Assembly: GCF_017348835.2 (NCBI RefSeq)
Contig: NZ_CP071375.1
Source of the DNA: Escherichia coli
GTDB lineage: Bacteria > Pseudomonadota > Gammaproteobacteria > Enterobacterales > Enterobacteriaceae
Reading direction: 5' to 3' (one strand)
Length of the DNA: 64,000 nt
The notes beneath the pieces were generated by a model, which made no database searches, had not been told where the DNA came from, and saw only the letters and a program-made list of their open reading frames with translations. A program made the translations under genes and the position numbers. Below, piece by piece: positions 1,505-62,399 of this stretch; the first letter of the stretch is position 1, and each line of letters opens with the position of its first letter.

Positions 1505-1589
1505 TGTTAACCTTAAATAATGTACAAATTAATGAAGAGGTGAAAACCGGCAAGCTTCCTTGCTCTTATTTATATTGAGGATTGAAATA

Positions 1590-2606
1590 TTAGAACGAAT
1601 ATCCCACGCCGACACCCGCGCCGAAATCAGATTGTGTATCCGCAGAGACACCGGCTTTAATCACGGTATGCGTTCCGGCATTAAAAGATGTTCCGACAGA
1701 CACCGCAGATTCACCGTTGAAGGTTCCCGCTCCCGCTGACACCATCATTAAGTCACCGGTTTTCACCTGTGGTTGTGAGGCGATAGCGATGGCAGATGCA
1801 GTTCCCGCATTGGCTTCTTTACGATTGTCATCAACTTCGTTTTTCAGCGAATCGAAATGGTTATTGAGCGTGTTAATTTGCTGGCTGTTATCAGCGACCC
1901 GGTTTTGGGTGTTGGTTAACTGTTGCTGCGTTTGGGTTACGTCTTGTGACAGGCTGTCAATTTGTTCATGTGCCTGGGCAGACTCCTGCGCCAGACTTTG
2001 CATTTGTTTATCGTATTGAGTCCTTTCATTTTGCTGTTGTACTGCCACATCGGTTGTCAGCGCATTCATTTTCTGCCCTTGTTCAGTGGCGGTGCGCTGA
2101 TTAGCCTCATTTTGAGCCGCCAGTCTGGCATTAATCATTTCCTGATAATGCGCGGTATTTTGCGTATCTCCAGTCGCGGCGAGCGTTTTTTGTGTGGCTA
2201 CGATCTGCGCCTGTTGCTCTGTAATTTGCGTTTGCTGGGCGTCAGTTACCGCAGACTGTCGGGCGTTGATCATGCTCTGATAACGGGCAGTTGTCTGTAC
2301 ATCACCTGTAGCGGCAACGGTTTTTTGTCCTGCGTCAGGATCTGTCTGGACAGTGGGAGTCTGAGTGGTATCAGGTGTTTCAGAAGGGATGTAGTGATGT
2401 TCAGTCAAATAGGTATACGCAGCGGGGCTGTTGTCTGTGCGTTCTAAAAAGCGGGTAATCTTCTGCTCAATCTCCGATTGCGACATGCCAGAGTTAATGG
2501 CTGAAAGCTCTGTTGCCGCCGCTTCAATGGTATCACCAGCTAAAACAACAGGGCTGGATGTTGCTGAAATTATGAGTGCCAGTAAAGCTACGTTTACAGT
2601 TTTCAT
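1590..2606 (-). CDS. short trimeric-autotransporter-like adhesin (YadA-type C-terminal membrane anchor, coiled-coil stalk)
   Basis: 338 aa. Signal peptide, then a Q/T/A-rich heptad-like stalk with an internal 45-aa repeat. C-terminus (LMMVSAGAGTFNGESAVSVGTSFN...GAGVGVGYSF) resembles the four-strand YadA anchor and ends in an aromatic residue. Confidence 0.7.
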   Translation of the reverse strand: MKTVNVALLALIISATSSPVVLAGDTIEAAATELSAINSGMSQSEIEQKITRFLERTDNSPAAYTYLTEHHYIPSETPDTTQTPTVQTDPDAGQKTVAATGDVQTTARYQSMINARQSAVTDAQQTQITEQQAQIVATQKTLAATGDTQNTAHYQEMINARLAAQNEANQRTATEQGQKMNALTTDVAVQQQNERTQYDKQMQSLAQESAQAHEQIDSLSQDVTQTQQQLTNTQNRVADNSQQINTLNNHFDSLKNEVDDNRKEANAGTASAIAIASQPQVKTGDLMMVSAGAGTFNGESAVSVGTSFNAGTHTVIKAGVSADTQSDFGAGVGVGYSF

Positions 2607-2972
2607 TCATTTTCTCTTGTTCAAAATAAGTTGTATTAATGTTTCTATAAGAAACAAATAATATTGTTTTAAGAAATAAACTGCGTTGCAATTTGATCGA
2701 AATCTACGCCGCCATTTGTGTGATGTAAAGCGCATTTTTGTCTGGTGTAAGCGTAAACACCACCAATAAGAAACCAAAATGGTTTCTTATATAAATAAAA
2801 AAGGAAATTATTTCGTGCTCTTTCAATGTAAAAAAGAGTAAGGACTTGTTTTGATAAGCGAAATAAATTCTGTTTCTGGACTAAACGTGAAGCGGTTCCT
2901 GATGTGTGCTAAAATGCGTTTCTTTGATAAATCTCAATTTTTAAGAGGTTTACGCCAGGCAGGAAAATTTAA

Positions 2973-3335
2973 ATGAATGAATTTGAGAAGATTTTTAATG
3001 AAATGAATCTGGACCGGGCATTGCTACCGATCCTTTTTCGTTCGAACCGGTCGACAGTGTGGAAGTATTTAAGCGGTGATAGTACGGCTCCTGCCTCTGC
3101 CATGTCGCTGATTATGCTGTTGCAGTTGATACAGAAACGAAACCCCGATCTGTTAGCCGAATGGTTAACGCTTTCTGATTTCACCATTCCGCCAGAAGTT
3201 TACCTGGACCAGCCTGATTACTGGAAAGGGTGGGTGTATACCCAACACAAGGTCAATAAAAACGTCCTGGAATATCTAAAAAAACACTATCCGGATGAAG
3301 ACCAAAAAAGTATGAGTAAAGGCCGGGAAGAGTAA
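2973..3335 (+). CDS. hypothetical small HTH-like protein (120 aa)
   Basis: ORF preceded by an AT-rich 360-bp spacer. The segment RSTVWKYLSGDSTAPASAMSLI looks like a Cro/C1-type helix-turn-helix. Family not recognised. Confidence 0.5.
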   Translation: MNEFEKIFNEMNLDRALLPILFRSNRSTVWKYLSGDSTAPASAMSLIMLLQLIQKRNPDLLAEWLTLSDFTIPPEVYLDQPDYWKGWVYTQHKVNKNVLEYLKKHYPDEDQKSMSKGREE

Positions 3336-3370
3336 ATTGCCAATGCCAGTTAACATTTAACATGGCGGAG

Positions 3371-3512
<142 letters not shown>

Positions 3513-3518
<6 letters not shown>

Positions 3519-3971
3519 GATGACCGCACGGATGATCAGCGTTATCCCTTCTATCGCAATGACTTCAACATGCGTACCTGCACCGAGATCCTCGCTGGCG
3601 CTGACAGGCCATGAACTGTCACCGACGCGCATATGACCGCGCCCGTTGACCAGCGGAGATTCCAGCACAAAACGTCGGCCAATAAGCTGCTGCCCGCGCT
3701 GGTTTAAATGACTGTCGCTGTGCTTTTGTTCGCGCACCCGCCGCGACAACCATTTCCACCACAGCCAGGCGGCGAGCAGCGTCAGGACGGCAAACATCAC
3801 CCCTTGCCACTCCCAACCCAGCGGCACCAGCCAGACCACCAGGCCGGTAATCACCGCTGCCACGCCGCTCCACAACAAATAACCATTTCCGCCCAGCATC
3901 TCGGCTGCCAGCAGCAAACCGCCGAGACTGAGCCAGAAAATATGTGGATGAACGACCATTAACTCCATCAT
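3513..3971 (-). CDS. ybbJ: NfeD-family inner-membrane protein YbbJ
   Basis: 152 aa. N-terminal TM helices plus C-terminal OB-like NfeD domain. 4-nt overlap with qmcA. K-12 synteny. Confidence 0.9.
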
Positions 3972-6536: not shown

Positions 6537-7433
<897 letters not shown>

Positions 7434-52280: not shown

Positions 52281-52317
52281 TTGCGAGATATGCAAGCGAT
52301 ATTTGCGAGGTATGCAA
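52281..52317. promoter_or_regulatory. OL: two 15-bp repressor operators (pL region)
   Basis: TTGCGAGATATGCAA (52281-52295) and TTGCGAGGTATGCAA (52303-52317), with starts 22 bp apart. The same word family occurs in the cI-cro intergenic region. Confidence 0.6.
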
Positions 52318-52330
52318 ATTTATAGGTAGT

Positions 52331-52351
52331 AAAAAGCCACCTTTCGGTGGC
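52331..52351 (-). terminator. rho-independent terminator downstream of cI
   Basis: gccacc-tttc-ggtggc hairpin followed in the minus sense by T5, 20 nt after the cI stop. Confidence 0.7.
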
Positions 52352-52371
52352 CGATGGATGGGATATTGAGG

Positions 52372-53064
52372 TTAATTATGTCTCTTAAGGGTTTGCGACT
52401 GACTGATTAAGACCTTTCCAAAGACCATGAATCGGTGTTCGTTTTCGCTAGTAATTCCCCATTCACGGTAAATCTGGTTATCAGAAATCACCAGCAGTTT
52501 GTCAGGAATCATTTGAAGTCTTTTAACGTATATTTTGTCATCAAAACCAAAGACATATATACCATCACCATCAAACTGATTGATGCTGACATCAACGAAG
52601 ATGAGATCTCCTGGCTCAATGGTTGGACACATACTGTCCCCACGAACGTTGATAACTTTGATGTGATTGGCTGGTCGTCCGCCGAACATTGATACAGCAT
52701 TATCAGTTCTGTATTCGATGGCATGAATCACATCAATGACATCACCGCCCTGGATAAGGCCATTTCCCGCACTGGCACTGATATCCAGCATTTCAATACG
52801 GAACACATCCTTCACCTGCGCAACATCCTCATTATTACTGTTTTTATATACAGTATTACTTTTGTGGGCAGAGGTAAAGAGATCAGCAATATCAACACCT
52901 AAGCTCTTGGCAATATTACTCAGTGTTTGTTCGGTAAATTGTTTTTGCTTACCCGTTTCTAAGCGCGAGATGTTCGCCGCATCTACTCCTATTGCTTCAG
53001 CGAGATCGGCGATTTTCATGTTCTTCGCTTGGCGAAGTTGTCTGACTCGGTTTCCTATGTTCAT
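52372..53064 (-). CDS. CI-like prophage repressor (HTH_XRE + S24 LexA-like peptidase)
   Basis: 230 aa. N-terminal XRE HTH (IGNRVRQLRQAKNMKIADLAEAIGVDAANISRLETGK). C-terminal S24 motifs GDSM (nucleophile Ser) and YVKRL (Lys). Confidence 0.88.
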   Translation of the reverse strand: MNIGNRVRQLRQAKNMKIADLAEAIGVDAANISRLETGKQKQFTEQTLSNIAKSLGVDIADLFTSAHKSNTVYKNSNNEDVAQVKDVFRIEMLDISASAGNGLIQGGDVIDVIHAIEYRTDNAVSMFGGRPANHIKVINVRGDSMCPTIEPGDLIFVDVSINQFDGDGIYVFGFDDKIYVKRLQMIPDKLLVISDNQIYREWGITSENEHRFMVFGKVLISQSQTLKRHN

Positions 53065-53084
53065 GCGTTTATTACATTTCTTTA

Positions 53085-53147
53085 TTGCGTGATAAGCAAA
53101 TCAACTTGCGCAAAATAATTGCGTGAAATAACATGCATAACGCGCAA
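53085..53147. promoter_or_regulatory. OR: operator cluster between cI and cro (pRM/pR region)
   Basis: TTGCGTGATAAGCAA (53085-53099, +) and TTGCGCGTTATGCAT (53133-53147, -), plus TTGCG half-sites at 53106 and 53119. Same family as OL. Confidence 0.6.
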
Positions 53148-53161
53148 TATTTGGAGGGCAT

Positions 53162-53422
53162 ATGCAATCACCATTACGAAATGTGCGTAAGGCGCATGGT
53201 TTCACTTTGCAGCATGTTGCTGCGGGTGTTCAAGTCAATCCAGCGACGTTGAGTCGTATTGAGAGGCTGGAGCAGATTCCATCTATCGAGCTTGCAGAAC
53301 GTTTAGCCAATTTTTTTAAGGGTGAAGTCAGCGAAATGCAGATTCTTTATCCGGCACGTTTTCAATCTAGCCAAAACCAGAATGGGTTTAAACCACAGGA
53401 ACAGGAGGTGAACCGTGGGTAA
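53162..53422 (+). CDS. Cro/YdaS-like HTH antirepressor-type regulator (86 aa)
   Basis: Divergent from cI with a GGAGGG SD. XRE-type HTH (HGFTLQHVAAGVQVNPATLSRIERLEQIPS). Confidence 0.8.
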   Translation: MQSPLRNVRKAHGFTLQHVAAGVQVNPATLSRIERLEQIPSIELAERLANFFKGEVSEMQILYPARFQSSQNQNGFKPQEQEVNRG

Positions 53423-53966
53423 GCATCACTGGAAAGTAGAAAAACAGCCTGAGTGTTACGTGAAAGCTGTCAGAAAAACTATCGCAGCGTTGCCGGGGGG
53501 GTACGCTGAAGCTGCTGACTGGCTGGATGTAACAGAGAACGCATTATTTAACCGCCTTCGTGCCGATGGCGATCAGATTTTCCCGCTGGGATGGGCAATG
53601 ATTTTGCAACGTGCTGGTGGAACTCACTTCATTGCTGACGCTGTGGCGCAGTCTGCAAATGGCGTCTTTGTGTCTCTTCCTGATGTCGAGGATGTGGACA
53701 ACGCCGATATCAACCAACGCCTGCTGGAAGTCATTGAACAGATCGGCAGTTATTCAAAACAGATTCGTTCAGCAATTGAAGACGGTGTAGTGGAACCGCA
53801 TGAGAAGACAGCAATTAACGATGAGCTGTACCTCTCAATTTCGAAGCTGCAGGAGCATGCAGCACTGGTCTACAAAATCTTTTGCGTTTCAGAAAGTAGT
53901 GACGCCCGCGAGTGTGCAGCTCCGGGCGCCGTGGCGTGTCGTGACTGTGGAGAAACTAACGCATGA
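53415..53966 (+). CDS. YdaT/CII-like regulatory protein (183 aa)
   Basis: Overlaps the cro stop. Its position and sequence style recall Rac YdaT-type CII analogues. Family call is from memory. Confidence 0.6.
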
Positions 53967-54301
53967 ACAGTTTAACAACACACTACCGTCGCTCGCAACT
54001 GATTGCGCTTCCTGTACCGGGTGGAAAAGCGAAGGTGGAGTATTGCTATGCAGTAAATGTACCAGGTGACAGGGAAATTGTAACCCACAGCTTTGCAGAG
54101 TGGGCTGTGGGTGATTTCAACCGGCAGAAGGAGACAGTCCTTTGCGACAAGTTAACCGCTGGTTCAAAGATCACTACGGAGTGCCCGTCAGAGTCATTCG
54201 TTGGGAGCCGGAAACACAACGGGTTATCTACCTCCGTGAAGGCTATGAGCATGAGTGCTTCAGCCCGCTCGAACAGTTTCGTCGTAAATTCAGGGAAATA
54301 G
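53963..54301 (+). CDS. hypothetical ORF (112 aa), doubtful over its 3' half
   Basis: ORF-track entry. The distal half is Ser-rich and low-complexity and is overlapped by a better-looking ORF in another frame (54142-54321). Confidence 0.3.
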
Positions 54302-54321
54302 AGGTCGGTCATGAGCACTAA
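54142..54321 (+). CDS. DUF4222-like small protein (59 aa, TTG start), missed by ORF track
   Basis: AAGGAG (54128-54133) lies 8 nt before TTG 54142. Translation: (M)[58 protein letters not shown], which resembles remembered DUF4222 phage proteins. The stop overlaps the next gene's start. Confidence 0.5.
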
Positions 54322-55252
54322 ATTAACCGGCTATGTATGGGATGGTTGCGCTGCGTCAGGCATGAAATTATCCAGCGTGGCAATTATGGCCCGCCTGGCT
54401 GATTTCAGTAATGACGAAGGTGTGTGCTGGCCATCAATTGAAACCATTGCCCGTCAGATTGGCGCGGGGATGAGTACCGTCAGAACGGCTATCGCACGGC
54501 TGGAAGCAGAAGGCTGGTTAACGCGTAAGGCGCGTCGCCAGGGTAACCGCAATGCGTCGAATGTTTATCAGCTTAACGTTGCGAAGCTTCAGGCAGCGGC
54601 ATTTTCTCAACTGTCAGATTCTGACCCGTCAAAATCTGACGCATCAAAATCTGACCCGTCAAAATTTGATGCGTCGAAATCTGGCAAAAAAGCGGGTTTT
54701 CACCCGTCAGAATCTGGCGGGGATCCGTCAGTAAAATCAAAACATGATCCGTCAGATAAAAAAACTTCTCGTCCGGACGCTTCGCAACCGGACACGCAGA
54801 AGGCTGAACAGGAGTTTTTAACTCGCCATCCTGATGCGGTTGTATTCAGCCCTAAAAAGCGCCAGTGGGGAACGCAGGATGATTTGACCTGCGCACAGTG
54901 GCTCTGGAAAAAAATCATCGCCCTGTACGAGCAGGCCGCCGAATGTGACGGCGAGGTGGTTCGTCCCAAAGAACCGAACTGGACAGCCTGGGCAAACGAA
55001 ATTCGCCTGATGTGTGTGCAGGATGGTCGTACTCACAAACAAATCTGCGAGATGTACAGCCGCGTCAGCCGCGATCCGTTCTGGTGCCGTAACGTGCTCA
55101 GCCCGTCGAAGCTGCGGGAAAAATGGGATGAGCTTTCCCTGCGCTTATCGCCGTCCGTCAGCACGTACACCGAAAAACGCGAAGACCCGTACTTCAAAGC
55201 CAGTTACGACAACGTGGACTACAGCCAGATCCCGGCAGGATTCAGGGGGTGA
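54311..55252 (+). CDS. replication initiator (lambda O-analogue; N-terminal wHTH, internal iteron-encoded repeat, conserved phage C-terminus)
   Basis: 313 aa. Sits in the O gene position. The coding sequence contains the ori iterons (peptide repeat SDSDPSKSDASKSDPSKFDASKS). Confidence 0.75.
   Translation: MSTKLTGYVWDGCAASGMKLSSVAIMARLADFSNDEGVCWPSIETIARQIGAGMSTVRTAIARLEAEGWLTRKARRQGNRNASNVYQLNVAKLQAAAFSQLSDSDPSKSDASKSDPSKFDASKSGKKAGFHPSESGGDPSVKSKHDPSDKKTSRPDASQPDTQKAEQEFLTRHPDAVVFSPKKRQWGTQDDLTCAQWLWKKIIALYEQAAECDGEVVRPKEPNWTAWANEIRLMCVQDGRTHKQICEMYSRVSRDPFWCRNVLSPSKLREKWDELSLRLSPSVSTYTEKREDPYFKASYDNVDYSQIPAGFRG
54612..54765. repeat. putative phage origin: at least 6 iterons CCGTCA(A/G)AATCTG(A/G) followed by an A-rich tract
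   Basis: gtcagattctgac ccgtcaaaatctgac gcatcaaaatctgac ccgtcaaaatttgat gcgtcgaaatctggc ... ccgtcagaatctggc ... ccgtcagtaaaatc ... ccgtcagataaaaaaac. Confidence 0.65.
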
Positions 55253-55254
55253 TC

Positions 55255-55743
55255 ATGAGTCTTTTGAATGACGTTCAGAAATTCATTGAAGCCCATCCGG
55301 GCTGTACTTCCGGAGACATTGCGGATGCTTTTGCAGGTTACTCACGGCAGCGCGTTCTGCAGTCAGCAAGCAAGTTACGTCAGAGTGGGCGTGTGGCTCA
55401 CCGTTGTGAAGGAGATACACACAGACATTTCCCGCGCCTGACTGAGAGAGCGCAGGATCCGGAACCACAACCAGTTCGTGAAACCAGACCTGTGCGCAAT
55501 TTCTATGTCGGCACTAACGACCCGCGGGTGATTTTGTGCCTGACCCGCCAGGCGGAAGAACTGGAGTCCAGGGGCTTATACCGTCGTGCTGCAACGGTGT
55601 GGATGGCGGCATTCCGTGAAAGCCACTCCCAGCAAGAGCGAAACAATTTTCTTGCGCGTCGTGAGCGGTGTTTACGGAAAAGCAGCAAGCGCGCTGTATC
55701 GGGTGAAGAGTGGTATCTGTCAGGGAATTACGTGGGGGCTTAA
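55255..55743 (+). CDS. hypothetical wHTH + PerC/ANR-like protein (162 aa)
   Basis: ATG 55255 follows GGGGGTGA. The C-terminal segment QAEELESRGLYRRAATVWMAAF resembles the PerC/ANR signature as I remember it. Confidence 0.55.
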   Translation: MSLLNDVQKFIEAHPGCTSGDIADAFAGYSRQRVLQSASKLRQSGRVAHRCEGDTHRHFPRLTERAQDPEPQPVRETRPVRNFYVGTNDPRVILCLTRQAEELESRGLYRRAATVWMAAFRESHSQQERNNFLARRERCLRKSSKRAVSGEEWYLSGNYVGA

Positions 55744-56069
55744 TGACGACGTTAACTCAATGCCAGCAGCAGGTGCTGGATATGCTGATTTCTTACCAGA
55801 AAGAACGTGGCTTCCCGCCAACCAATCAGGAGGTGGCTACCATGCTGGGATACCGTTCAGTGAATGCAGCGGTGGAGCATCTTCGCGCACTGGAGAAAAA
55901 AGGCGTCATCACGATAAAGCGTGGCGTGGCCCGGGGCATCACGCTTCATACCGCGGTGAAGGACGACGACAGCGAGGTGGCCGGGATTATCCGCGCACTG
56001 CTTGCTGGTGAGGAAAACGCCAGGCTGCGTGCAACCCACTGGTTACATGAGAGGGGCCTGAAAGTATGA
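55743..56069 (+). CDS. LexA N-terminal DNA-binding-domain-only protein (108 aa)
   Basis: MTTLTQCQQQVLDMLISYQKERGFPPTNQEVATMLGYRSVNAAVEHLRALEKKGVITIKRGVARGITL aligns residue for residue with the remembered LexA 1-70 ([68 protein letters not shown]). No Ala-Gly cleavage site or S24 domain follows. The start overlaps the previous stop (TAATG). Confidence 0.75.
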   Translation: MTTLTQCQQQVLDMLISYQKERGFPPTNQEVATMLGYRSVNAAVEHLRALEKKGVITIKRGVARGITLHTAVKDDDSEVAGIIRALLAGEENARLRATHWLHERGLKV

Positions 56070-56455
56070 AGCTGATCCTGCCTTTTCCGCCCAGCGTGAA
56101 CACGTACTGGCGACACCCCAACAAAGGGGCGTTTGCTGGTAAGAGCCTGATAAGCGCGGCGGGGCGAAAATTCCAGAGCGCGGCGTGCGCAGCAATAGTT
56201 GAGCAGTTACGTCGTCTGCCGAAACCAACGTCGGCACCTGCTTCAGTGGAGATCGTGTTGTTTCCTCCGGATAACAGGATCCGCGATCTGGACAACTATA
56301 ACAAGGCGCTGTTTGACGCCCTGACCCACGCGGGGGTGTGGGAAGACGACAGTCAGGTGAAAAGAATGCTGGTGGAGTGGGGACCGGTTATCCCGGAAGG
56401 GAAGGTCGAGATCACTATCAGTAAGTACGAGAAAACGGCGGGTGCAGCTGCCTGA
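56066..56455 (+). CDS. rusA: Holliday-junction resolvase RusA
   Basis: 129 aa. MKLILPFPPSVNTYWRH and DLDNYNKALFDALTHAGVWEDDSQV are RusA hallmarks. Confidence 0.88.
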   Translation: MKLILPFPPSVNTYWRHPNKGAFAGKSLISAAGRKFQSAACAAIVEQLRRLPKPTSAPASVEIVLFPPDNRIRDLDNYNKALFDALTHAGVWEDDSQVKRMLVEWGPVIPEGKVEITISKYEKTAGAAA

Positions 56456-56474
56456 TCAAGAGGAGAAACGAAGT

Positions 56475-57284
56475 ATGAATAATCTGATGGTCATTGATGG
56501 TATTGAAGTTCGTCGTGATGCTTATGGGCGTTACAGCCTGAACGATCTGCATCGCGCAGCAGTAGCATCTGGTGCAAATGCCAGAACCAAGGAGCCAGGA
56601 AAGTTTCTTTCCAGCCAACAAACTGTTGAGCTTGTTCATGAATTAACCAACACCCAGAATTTGGGTGTTGACCCGGTGAGTGTGATTCATGGGGGAAATG
56701 AACGGGGAACGTATGTCTGTAAGGAACTGGTGTATGCCTATGCAATGTGGATCAGCCCGTCATTCCATCTGAAGGTGATCCGTACTTTCGATATGGTAAC
56801 CAGCGCGCCGGAAAAGTTATCCGGACAGGTTGCTGACAAGATGCAGGCTGGCGTGATTCTGCTGGACTTTATGCGCCGGGAGTTAAATCTGTCTAACTCA
56901 TCTGTGCTTGGGGCCTGTCAGAAACTCCAGGAGGCTGTTGGCTTACCGAATCTGGCACCGCGCTATGCCATTGATGCACCTGCTGACGCGCCTGATGGCT
57001 CAAGCCGCCCGACGCTGTCGCTGAGTGCACTGCTGAAGCAGTATGGTATCCGCCTGACGGCTAATCAGGCATATCACCAGATGGCGAAGCTGGGGATCGT
57101 TGAACAACGCGAACGATACAGCCGTACCGCGATTAACAACATCAAAAAATTCTGGTCGCTGACAGCGAAAGGTTGCATGTTCGGCAAGAACATCACCAGT
57201 CCCGCAAATCCGCGCGAGACGCAGCCGCATTTCTTCGAATCCCGATTCCCTGAGCTGTTAAAGCTGCTCGATACCGTTCATTGA
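56475..57284 (+). CDS. KilA-N domain protein (269 aa)
   Basis: Start at MNNLMVIDGIEVRRDAYGRYSLNDLHRA. The KilA-N signature continues through WISPSFHLKVIRTFD. Confidence 0.75.
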   Translation: MNNLMVIDGIEVRRDAYGRYSLNDLHRAAVASGANARTKEPGKFLSSQQTVELVHELTNTQNLGVDPVSVIHGGNERGTYVCKELVYAYAMWISPSFHLKVIRTFDMVTSAPEKLSGQVADKMQAGVILLDFMRRELNLSNSSVLGACQKLQEAVGLPNLAPRYAIDAPADAPDGSSRPTLSLSALLKQYGIRLTANQAYHQMAKLGIVEQRERYSRTAINNIKKFWSLTAKGCMFGKNITSPANPRETQPHFFESRFPELLKLLDTVH

Positions 57285-58870: not shown

Positions 58871-59953
58871 TTAGAACTGGTAAACCATACCTACAGCAAC
58901 GATATCATCGGTAGCAACGCCAGATGCTTTCGTGAAATCGCTCTTATCAATCAGGTTGATTTTGTAATCAACAAAAGTGGACATATTTTTGTTGAAGTAA
59001 TAGGTTGCACCTACATCAATATATTCAACCAGGTCCTGATCACCCCACGCACCCAAGTCTTTTCCTTTAGATTGCAGGTAAGCAACGGACGGACGCAGAC
59101 CGAAGTCGAACTGATATTGTGCAACTACTTCGAAGTTTTGTGCTTTGTTGGCAATATGGTTATTACCAAAAACAGTCATGTTCTGGGTTTCAGAATAGGT
59201 GGTAGCCAGATAGATGTTGTTCGCATCATATTTCAGACCAGCTGCCCATACTTCAGCATTTTGACCAGATGCATTCAGGCTGTTGTTACCGTAGATAACC
59301 TGATTATTAGTGCGGTCAGATTTAGCATAGGTTGCACCTACACCGAATCCTTCATACTCATACGTAGTGGAGAAACCGAAACCATCACCATTAGCTTCAG
59401 TTACGTCAGTGCGGTCATTTTTACCCTGATACTGAGCAGCAAAGTTCAGACCATCAACCAGACCAAAGAAGTCGTTGTTACGATAAGTTGCAACACCAGT
59501 GGTGCGACCAGTCATGAACACATCTGTTTGGGTCCAGGTATCGCCACCGAATTCTGGCAGAACGTCAGTCCACGCACCGATGTCATATGCTACACCGTAG
59601 TTACGGCCGTAATCGATTGAGCCGTAGTCCCCGAATTTCAGGCCTGCAAATGCAAGACGGGTTTTGTCTTTGGAGGAGCCTTGAGATTCAGCGCGGTTGC
59701 CTTTGAATTCATATTCCCACTGACCGAAACCAGTCAGTTGATCGTTGATTTGGGTTTCACCTTTGAAGCCAAGACGGGCATAAGTAGTATCACCATCATC
59801 TGCATCATTAGAGGAGAAGTAGTGCTTGGCATTAACTTTCCCATATAGATCCAGCTTGTTACTGTCTTTATTATAAATTTCAGCTGCCTGAGCAGACATC
59901 GCCATCAGTACTGATGCGGCTACAGCAGAAATTGCCACTGTTAATTTTTTCAT
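58871..59953 (-). CDS. nmpC: phage-borne general porin NmpC/Lc type, intact (360 aa)
   Basis: Signal peptide [23 protein letters not shown], OmpC/OmpF-family beta-barrel ending in YQF. No IS interruption (K-12 nmpC is IS5-disrupted, from memory). Confidence 0.9.
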
Positions 59954-61743: not shown

Positions 61744-62037
61744 TTATTGTGAGCAATACACACGCGCTTCCAGCGGAGTATAAATGCCTAAAGTAATAAA
61801 ACCGAGCAATCCATTTACGAATGTTTGCTGGGTTTCTGTTTTAACAACATTTTCTGCGCCGCCACAAATTTTGGCTGCATCAACAGTTTTCTCCTGTCCA
61901 ATTCCCGAAACGAAGAAGTGATGGGTGATGGTTTCCTTTGGTGTTACTGCTGTCGGTTTGTTTCCAACAGTAAACGTCTGTTGAGCACATCCTGTAATAA
62001 GCATTGCCAGAGCGGCAGAAAACAACATTTTTTTCAT
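61744..62037 (-). CDS. borD: Bor lipoprotein (serum-resistance type)
   Basis: Start at MKKMLFSAALAMLITGC gives 97 aa. Lipobox ITGC. Confidence 0.88.
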   Translation of the reverse strand: MKKMLFSAALAMLITGCAQQTFTVGNKPTAVTPKETITHHFFVSGIGQEKTVDAAKICGGAENVVKTETQQTFVNGLLGFITLGIYTPLEARVYCSQ

Positions 62038-62399
62038 CTTATTATCCTGCATTGTTAAAAACGGCAGAATCCTATGTGACAACAATTAAACGATAATTAA
62101 ATGGATTGATGAAAATTAAAACTATATAGGTGTACGCTCAGACTATTGGAGGAAGTTGGGGACACTCAGAATCCTGTGGAATGAAATAAACCGGTCTATC
62201 CGTCTATTACCCTTTTAGCTGCGCTGTATCGTCGCCGTATTCCCGCATTAACCATGACCGTAGCCCGACGGGGAATTCCTTCTGCGTGAGTGTGCGGGAA
62301 TAATCAAAAACGATGCACACCGGGTTTTACTGTGCTGACAGACGCAGGGTTACCCTCATAGTCGCTTTTCCGGTGCGATGGTGGAAGAAACCGGGATGT

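Follow-up and report, generated by a model that had tools for sequence, protein, structure and literature searches.

A prophage-borne LexA-type DNA-binding domain with a conserved two-helix module in place of the protease domain, encoded in the nin region of an Escherichia coli prophage

The stretch of DNA analyzed here, 64,000 nucleotides of Escherichia coli (contig NZ_CP071375.1 of assembly GCF_017348835.2; hereafter the window), carries in the nin region of a lambdoid prophage a gene for a protein of 108 residues in which a LexA-type DNA-binding domain is joined to a conserved C-terminal module of two predicted helices. We refer to the gene and its product as LexA'. The gene occupies positions 55743-56069 of the plus strand, stop codon included, as given by the open reading frame (ORF) list and the sequence; the frame is intact, ends in TGA and encodes MTTLTQCQQQVLDMLISYQKERGFPPTNQEVATMLGYRSVNAAVEHLRALEKKGVITIKRGVARGITLHTAVKDDDSEVAGIIRALLAGEENARLRATHWLHERGLKV. 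The identity of the DNA-binding domain is unambiguous, and the gene is an ordinary member of a widespread prophage family that is already annotated. That a phage can encode a truncated LexA has been published before; for the conserved C-terminal module we found no earlier description. The role that we tentatively put forward, at somewhat less than an even chance, is that of a RecA-insensitive LexA-like repressor that is dimerised through its tail and acts at CTGT-type (SOS-like) operators.

The winged helix-turn-helix (HTH) spans residues 1-68 (55743-55946, plus strand), as delimited by an AlphaFold2 (AF2) model, Foldseek and Pfam. The Pfam family LexA_DNA_bind (PF01726) matches residues 1-65 over its whole 65-position profile with E=2.9e-19 and 69 bits, against a cut-off of 23.7. 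In a phmmer search of the PDB, E. coli LexA ranks first (1LEA, E=8e-16; 3JSO, 3.5e-15), residues 2-69 aligning with residues 2-69 without a gap, and the ungapped comparison of residues 1-70 with E. coli LexA gives 35/70 identities. Structure prediction from the single sequence was unusable, with a predicted local distance difference test score (pLDDT) of 48.7; the AF2 model used throughout was therefore built with a 35-sequence family alignment and reaches a mean pLDDT of 82, with helices at residues 6-22, 28-35 and 40-52 and the strands of a beta-hairpin at 56-58 and 66-68. The top Foldseek matches of this model are the chains of the LexA-DNA complex 3JSO, with a root-mean-square deviation (rmsd) of 1.0 A over 67-68 residues and 50-51% identity. 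A first-pass annotation of the window, made by reading the letters alone, had seen the N-terminal winged helix of LexA in the first ~70 residues together with the motif RSxNAAxEHLxALxxKGVI. Pfam, phmmer against the PDB and Foldseek all bear out the domain, and the motif is present as RSVNAAVEHLRALEKKGVI, aligned to LexA. The Pfam check proposed at that time has thus been run, and no other winged-helix family emerged from it; every profile and fold search returned LexA. Among six close alleles, 10 variable codons of the domain differ synonymously only and 2 change the residue, and judged from these codons the domain is under purifying selection.

The protease half of LexA is missing. Pfam gave no match to Peptidase_S24 in the protein, whose chain ends at residue 108, and the lexA equivalog TIGR00498 reaches 67 bits where its cut-off is 111, and aligns over profile positions 1-91 of 203 only; LexA' falls outside LexA proper because it lacks the protease part. 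The earlier statement that the S24 domain and its Ser-Lys dyad are absent is borne out by these results, and it is because of this architecture that the protein would be insensitive to RecA. The same annotation had denied an Ala-Gly cleavage site, which is right in function and wrong in letter. MAFFT aligns Ala88-Gly89-Glu90 of LexA' with Ala84-Gly85-Glu86 of LexA, so that the dipeptide does exist; it is not conserved in the family, where AN, VG, ER, DD and others stand at 88-89, and it is no self-cleavage site because the S24 protease domain is absent. The tripeptide may be left over from an ancestor of full length. The further suggestion that the protein might heterodimerise poorly is moot, given that nothing homologous to the dimerisation domain of LexA is present.

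What had been described as a short unrelated tail turns out, from the family alignment and the AF2 model, to be a conserved module. It is preceded by a variable linker of low confidence at residues 69-74 (55947-55964, plus strand; pLDDT <50 at residues 71-74), predicted to be disordered, and occupies residues 75-103 (55965-56051, plus strand), where the model places helices at 75-87 and 93-103 with a pLDDT of ~86-87. Mean pairwise identity in the family alignment is 0.60 for the DNA-binding domain and 0.45 for the tail, and falls to 0.28 for residues 69-76. Hydrophobic residues are conserved at positions 79, 80, 82, 83, 86, 87, 93, 97, 100 and 101, the second helix carries the motif A-R-x-R-A-x-x-[FYW]-L with an invariant A97, and arginines are found at position 94 in 31/35 and at position 96 in 27/35 of the family members. 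The tail is common even to homologues that are only 37-50% identical to LexA', and this pattern of conservation indicates that it is under selection. The two helices are amphipathic and take the place of the S24 protease/dimerisation domain. No relatives of the tail were recognized: a tail profile searched against the PDB and three tail sequences searched against Pfam (E up to 10) returned noise only (ProX, NIL). We infer that the module, a putative oligomerisation element, most likely provides the self-association that LexA' needs.

The residues through which the domain would read DNA are largely those of LexA. In LexA, the DNA contacts of helix 3 are made by S39, N41, A42, E44 and E45 (PMC3091678). 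Ser39 and the recognition helix of LexA' correspond to residues 39-52, SVNAAVEHLRALEK (55857-55898, plus strand; ungapped LexA alignment), and four of the five contacts, S39, N41, A42 and E45, are unchanged; Val replaces the contact E44 and also P40. Across the family, neither S39 and N41 nor R64-G65-I66 of the wing ever vary. The protein of the E. coli clade, as far as its helix can tell, still looks like a reader of CTGT.

HMMER and profile searches delimit a family of prophage proteins of 105-135 residues in nine genera of Enterobacterales (Escherichia, Salmonella, Citrobacter, Cronobacter, Klebsiella, Enterobacter, Raoultella, Atlantibacter and Hafnia), with homologues among them that are only 37-65% identical to LexA'. 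The family corresponds to PHROG 362 (E=5.3e-58, residues 1-108 of LexA' aligning with the whole profile, positions 1-106 of 106). Its existing annotations read 'LexA DNA binding domain protein', 'LexA family transcriptional regulator' and, for PHROG 362, 'transcriptional repressor', the last of which derives from homology only. The gene is present in 2232 of 5426 complete E. coli genomes (41%), nearly all records at at least 95% nucleotide identity and with up to four copies per genome, and in 70 of the 80 IMG/VR nin regions that share the DUF968 allele of the window. It also occurs in 50 phage records, including SfII, SfV (orf42), SfIV, mEp460, cdtI, 1720a-02 and the Stx2a, Stx2c and Stx2k converting phages. 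For the carrier 1720a-02 we considered LexA' as the source of its 'bully phage' effect and rejected the idea; the paper on that phage credits Cro and did not examine LexA'. Separately, some proteins of 140-350 residues (e.g., P0130, P0131, P0148 and P0151-P0154) match the LexA' query in two separate stretches, and these may hold two LexA-type DNA-binding domains per chain, as a covalent pseudo-dimer.

The position of the gene is conserved as well. The slot can be written as (PerC)-(DNA methyltransferase)-LexA'-RusA-(KilA-N, Rha/ANT or ORF6N/ANT)-DUF968-Q, and LexA' is seen in it upstream of rusA, DUF968 and Q in the window, SfV, SfIV, cdtI, SfII and mEp460. The same slot is found in Cronobacter, Salmonella, Enterobacter, Atlantibacter and Klebsiella, the last without rusA and with DUF968 kept. 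The upstream DNA methyltransferase belongs to three unrelated Pfam families in different clades, PF05869 in E. coli and Cronobacter, PF05869 with PF00145 in Salmonella and PF02086 in Atlantibacter; it lies between the PerC-like gene and LexA' in 52/70 related nin regions, and in 16/70 these two genes are adjacent, like those of the window. The LexA' cassette is mobile among phages whose immunity and late regions differ, and this mobility favors a target in the host or inside the cassette.

A tie between the family and the SOS circuit is provided by its members in Klebsiella and Enterobacter, which are 130-135 residues long and have an N-terminal extension. Bit scores for SOS boxes, here and below, come from a matrix built from E. 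coli operators of the literature and are approximate. In Klebsiella a perfect SOS box, TACTGTTTATTTATACAGTA, of 27.4 bits lies ~20 bp upstream of the start of dinI, at the head of an operon of dinI, a small ORF and the LexA' homologue (7385-7404 in loci L008, L009 and L010). In Enterobacter a box of 20.8 bits stands ahead of an operon of a small ORF and the LexA' homologue (6560-6579 in L015 and L016). These SOS-box promoters connect the family with the SOS circuit, and the homologues of both genera are most likely LexA-controlled themselves, judging by the placement of the boxes. Two further observations concern prophages that carry members of the family. The nin region of the Klebsiella prophages L008-L010 contains, at 1574-3542, an AAA_15/ABC-ATPase gene and a DUF4435 gene, a pair that we take to resemble the AriA/AriB pair of the PARIS defence system. 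In the Atlantibacter prophage L018, which carries LexA', a 22-bit SOS box (2829-2848) is located upstream of an 85-residue minus-strand ORF that adjoins the repressor gene; that repressor has no S24 domain, and the layout of box and ORF is typical of LexA-controlled antirepressors.

In the window itself, the candidate target is an SOS box, TACTGTTTTTATATACAGTA, at 52836-52855 (no strand assigned; matrix and exact match) inside the cI-like gene (52372-53064, minus strand). It scores 27.3 bits, compared with 15.3 for the next-best site, and is the sole exact CTGT-N8-ACAG of the 64 kb. We take its reverse complement to be the umuDC operator. The box lies between the segments that encode the HTH and S24 domains of the cI-like protein, and it is kept in six cI alleles from Escherichia, Salmonella, Klebsiella and Citrobacter phages that are ~70-100% identical in nucleotide sequence, CTGT...CAGT being invariant while the flanking linker codons vary. 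Its positions in relatives are 3168 in L005, 9465 in L007, 9468 in L006, 470 in L014, 755 in L099, 746 in L100 and 762 in L101. In the sense direction of cI, an invariant TTTAC(C/A) precedes TACTGT by 17 bp. The arrangement could represent a LexA-controlled internal promoter that yields a repressor fragment consisting of the C-terminal domain only, or a roadblock on cI transcription. A sigma-70 promoter scan of 52300-56600 detected no consensus promoter at this box or near LexA' (1 site found versus 3.6 expected from shuffles), and a search of the prophage part of the window for CTGT/ACAG pairs at spacings of 0-20 yielded nothing beyond the canonical N8 box in cI. We found no description of a cI-internal SOS box in the literature.

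Carriers also have strong SOS boxes at other places. The box TACTGTAAAAATAAACAGTG recurs at 34170 in L002, 44083 in L004 and 18516 in L007, and in 30/80 IMG/VR loci, where its position is ~+2.4 to +3.6 kb relative to the start of DUF968. SfV, cdtI and mEp460 have it across the start of a DNA methyltransferase gene that lies immediately downstream of Q. LexA may gate this methyltransferase gene or late read-through. As a separate observation, this place downstream of Q is where stx sits in Stx phages. In SfIV (L003, 32639-32658) and in L031, L062, L063 and L065 (at -934 relative to the start of DUF968), an SOS box lies between rusA and a KilA-N gene; the KilA-N variant behind it is ~69% identical to the KilA-N gene of the window, which has no such box. 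The arrangement suggests that in SfIV-type loci a LexA-controlled antirepressor-like gene adjoins LexA'. A further box of carrier phages lies upstream of dinI in cdtI and mEp460.

The mechanism that we propose brings these elements together. After prophage induction or infection, LexA' would be expressed from PR as one of the delayed-early (nin) genes; for the homologues of Klebsiella and Enterobacter, transcription would instead start at a LexA-controlled promoter of their own. The tail helices would pair two LexA' subunits, and the dimer would bind inverted CTGT-type half-sites in operators that resemble SOS boxes. Having neither the pair of cleavage site and protease nor the C-terminal domain that binds RecA*, LexA' would stay bound while host LexA is destroyed, and it would thereby re-impose or maintain repression at LexA-type operators. 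The proposed targets include the SOS genes of the host, genes under SOS control on co-resident elements and phage boxes such as the one at 52836-52855. RecA-insensitive occupancy of SOS boxes had been suggested at first pass and is plausible. Dimerisation, the identity of the operator and repression rather than activation are the parts of this scheme that we infer. That the design could work is indicated by two-hybrid experiments in which the LexA DNA-binding domain alone gave no repression of sulA-lacZ, and its fusions to the homodimerising proteins H-NS or SehB did repress (PMC7160566); a natural LexA-type DNA-binding domain with a self-associating tail at the same position would thus be a workable repressor design.

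In its most far-reaching form, which we consider rather doubtful, phage-made LexA' would re-occupy SOS boxes genome-wide once host LexA is lost, shutting the host SOS programme and silencing SOS-controlled competitors, such as the antirepressors of other prophages and colicin/lysis genes, along with the phage's own boxes; in Klebsiella and Enterobacter it would act with DinI as an SOS-induced off-switch. If this were true, ~4 in 10 complete E. coli genomes would hold a phage gene with the capacity to rewire their SOS response, and so would many Shiga-toxin, cdt and serotype-converting phages. SOS governs mutagenesis, persistence, the induction of toxin phages and the cross-induction of co-resident prophages, and LexA' would therefore be a further layer in prophage competition and in the biology of Stx phages.

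Several observations weigh against the proposed mechanism. Position 44 is never Glu in any of the 35/35 tail-bearing members (A, L, V, T or F instead), compared with Glu44 in 11/19 full-length LexA-like representatives. Positions 40, 44 and 45 vary by clade; most members have E or D at position 45, and the Klebsiella clade, which reads SSSNAVLLHL, has Leu there. The host SOS box does not, to our knowledge, vary within Enterobacterales; the variation among clades therefore looks like diverging specificities, and family-wide the specificity appears to drift, which is unexpected for a pure mimic of an invariant host operator. The boxes themselves do not follow the gene. Within flanks of at most 10 kb on each side, 25/70 carrier nin regions have no SOS box of at least 18 bits, and ST64B and L070 carry the intragenic cI box and no LexA' gene; an exclusive link between LexA' and a strong box on the carrier was rejected on these grounds. 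LexA' is found in 23/24 loci that have the cI allele of the window, and also in 47/56 others. As no SOS box is common to all carriers, the target would lie in the host or inside the cassette. A stable repressor on the box downstream of Q could moreover obstruct late transcription. The only characterised LexA homologue that consists of a DNA-binding domain alone, gp6 of the Bacillus thuringiensis tectivirus GIL01, has an operator of its own, GaCACAn-nTGTGaC, at which it activates the late promoter P3 (PMC6182141). Finally, full-text searches of the literature found no experimental study of the PHROG 362 family.

With gp6 as its precedent, LexA' might instead be pictured as a phage-specific transcription factor with its own operator, in which the LexA fold is borrowed, the specificity has drifted and a phage promoter or a particular host promoter is activated or repressed. 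We regard this main alternative as unlikely, though with points in its favor: the LexA' family profile matches gp6 (96% probability, E=2e-9), the loss of Glu44 is systematic and accompanied by clade-specific residues at 40, 44 and 45, and the carriers share no SOS box. The operator that it calls for did not appear, since no conserved non-SOS palindrome was found, the spacing search described above returning only the cI box, and since neither that search nor the promoter scan identified a candidate late-promoter site of the gp6 type, overlapping -35. Almost all of the nin cassette is overlapping coding sequence, in which an operator would find little space. In its recognition helix the E. coli clade also stands far nearer to LexA than gp6 does, and BLASTP produced no alignment of gp6 with LexA'. 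A cassette that moves between unrelated immunity and late modules would, in addition, be awkward for a factor devoted to one promoter. If LexA' did have its own operator, it would stand beside GIL01 gp6 as a second and independent case in which a phage reuses a LexA DNA-binding domain as a private regulator. A narrower role as local controller of its nin neighbors, either in the manner of a C protein for the upstream DNA methyltransferase or for the KilA-N/ANT-type gene beyond rusA, is quite improbable. A methyltransferase does precede LexA' in 52/70 related loci, from unrelated families in different clades, and the SOS box between rusA and the KilA-N variant of SfIV and four IMG/VR loci would suit such control. 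LexA' is nevertheless intact in the window and in the 16/70 related loci that have no adjoining methyltransferase, the Klebsiella and Enterobacter homologues have no methyltransferase neighbor either, and the TAATG and ATGA overlaps with the adjacent genes leave no space between them for a promoter or operator.

A protein that works mainly by protein contacts, its tail docked on a host or phage protein and its winged helix serving only to localise it to DNA, is an improbable alternative. The surface arginines R94 and R96, conserved besides the hydrophobic core of the tail, could serve such docking; the lack of a recognisable homologue of the tail in Pfam and the PDB is compatible with it, and so is the operon that the Klebsiella homologue shares with DinI, a binder of the RecA filament. 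The DNA-binding domain is, to the contrary, the most conserved part of the protein, both in mean pairwise identity and in its synonymous-only codons, and synteny suggests no partner. LexA contacts RecA* through its C-terminal domain, which LexA' does not have. Among the PDB matches of LexA' is 8TRG, which shows full-length LexA on a RecA filament. That LexA' should be a decaying, functionless fragment of a full-length LexA-like phage repressor is scarcely credible. The Ala-Gly-Glu aligned with the LexA cleavage site hints at a full-length ancestor, and there the case for decay ends: protein length is constant (105-135 residues), tail and synteny are conserved across nine genera, the DNA-binding domain bears the marks of purifying selection and 41% of complete E. 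coli genomes carry the gene at at least 95% identity. A dead remnant is contradicted by these conservation data.

The immediate surroundings of the gene are as follows. Upstream lies a PerC/YfdN-like ORF (55249-55743; Pfam PerC, E=9e-10) whose TAA overlaps the ATG of LexA' in a TAATG stop/start junction (55741-55745, plus strand), and downstream lies rusA (56066-56455; Pfam RusA, E=6e-15), whose start overlaps the stop of LexA' in an ATGA junction (56066-56069, plus strand). The coupling to a PerC-like gene, the overlap with rusA and the location in a nin region had all been proposed at first pass, and the sequence together with the Pfam and PHROG assignments of the neighbors confirms them. 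The TAATG coupling results from a missing dam-type methyltransferase gene of ~650 bp, which in SfV, SfII and mEp460 stands between yfdN and LexA'. The order of genes around LexA' begins with the cI-like repressor (XRE and S24 domains, minus strand) and runs through cro, a CII/CP76-like gene, an O-like replication gene, PerC/YfdN, LexA', rusA, the KilA-N gene, DUF968/HNH and quuD to an OmpC-like porin gene and the lysis genes, so that LexA' sits between the O-like replication gene and quuD. From an E. coli chromosome with an identical LexA' copy and matching gene order, the position of the prophage is read as tRNA-Arg/fimZ; these surrounding genes and the chromosomal match place LexA' in the nin region of a lambdoid prophage. 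Two genes of the lysogenic-conversion type were observed farther along, named from the annotation of that chromosome. An OmpC/NmpC-like porin gene (58871-59953, minus strand) separates Q from the lysis genes, which are followed by an iss/bor-like lipoprotein gene (~61744-62085, minus strand). PADLOC gave no meaningful match to a defence system.

Compared with known systems, LexA' is closest in its DNA-binding half to host LexA (1LEA, 1JHH, 3JSO). The winged helices are 50% identical over 70 gapless residues, with the same secondary structure and the rmsd of 1.0 A given above, and S39, N41, A42, E45 and the wing R64-G65-I66 are retained. Host LexA differs in having the S24 domain with its Ser119/Lys156 dyad and a functional cleavage site, as well as Glu44 and Pro40 where LexA' has Val; LexA' has the two-helix tail in place of the C-terminal domain, and it is a phage-borne gene of a lytic operon. 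GIL01 gp6 shares with LexA' a phage-encoded LexA-type DNA-binding domain without a protease domain and a place in an early operon. It differs in consisting of 66 residues with a winged HTH only and no C-terminal module, and in its descent from a Gram-positive LexA; its recognition helix is VSHKTAHRYL, with K38 critical, compared with SVNAAVEHL in LexA', and hhalign of gp6 with the LexA' family gives 32% identity over 63 columns.

Prophage DinI homologues, which dampen SOS, are, like LexA', small prophage-borne genes related to SOS, and in Klebsiella dinI and the LexA' homologue belong to one SOS-box operon. DinI acts on the RecA filament and not on DNA, and it is unrelated to LexA' in sequence and fold. 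The named members of PHROG 362 (SfV orf42, SfII gp44, mEp460 gp46 and cdtI orf48) belong to the same family as LexA' at full length, with 95-98% nucleotide identity and the same nin slot. LexA fusions for the bacterial two-hybrid were reportedly described by Dmitrova in 1998. The engineered fusions that join LexA's DNA-binding domain to a dimeriser (PMC7160566) are artificial and contain the wild-type domain, to which that of LexA' is only 50% identical; in their layout, a LexA DNA-binding domain followed by a self-associating module, they match what LexA' would be if its tail self-associates as we propose.

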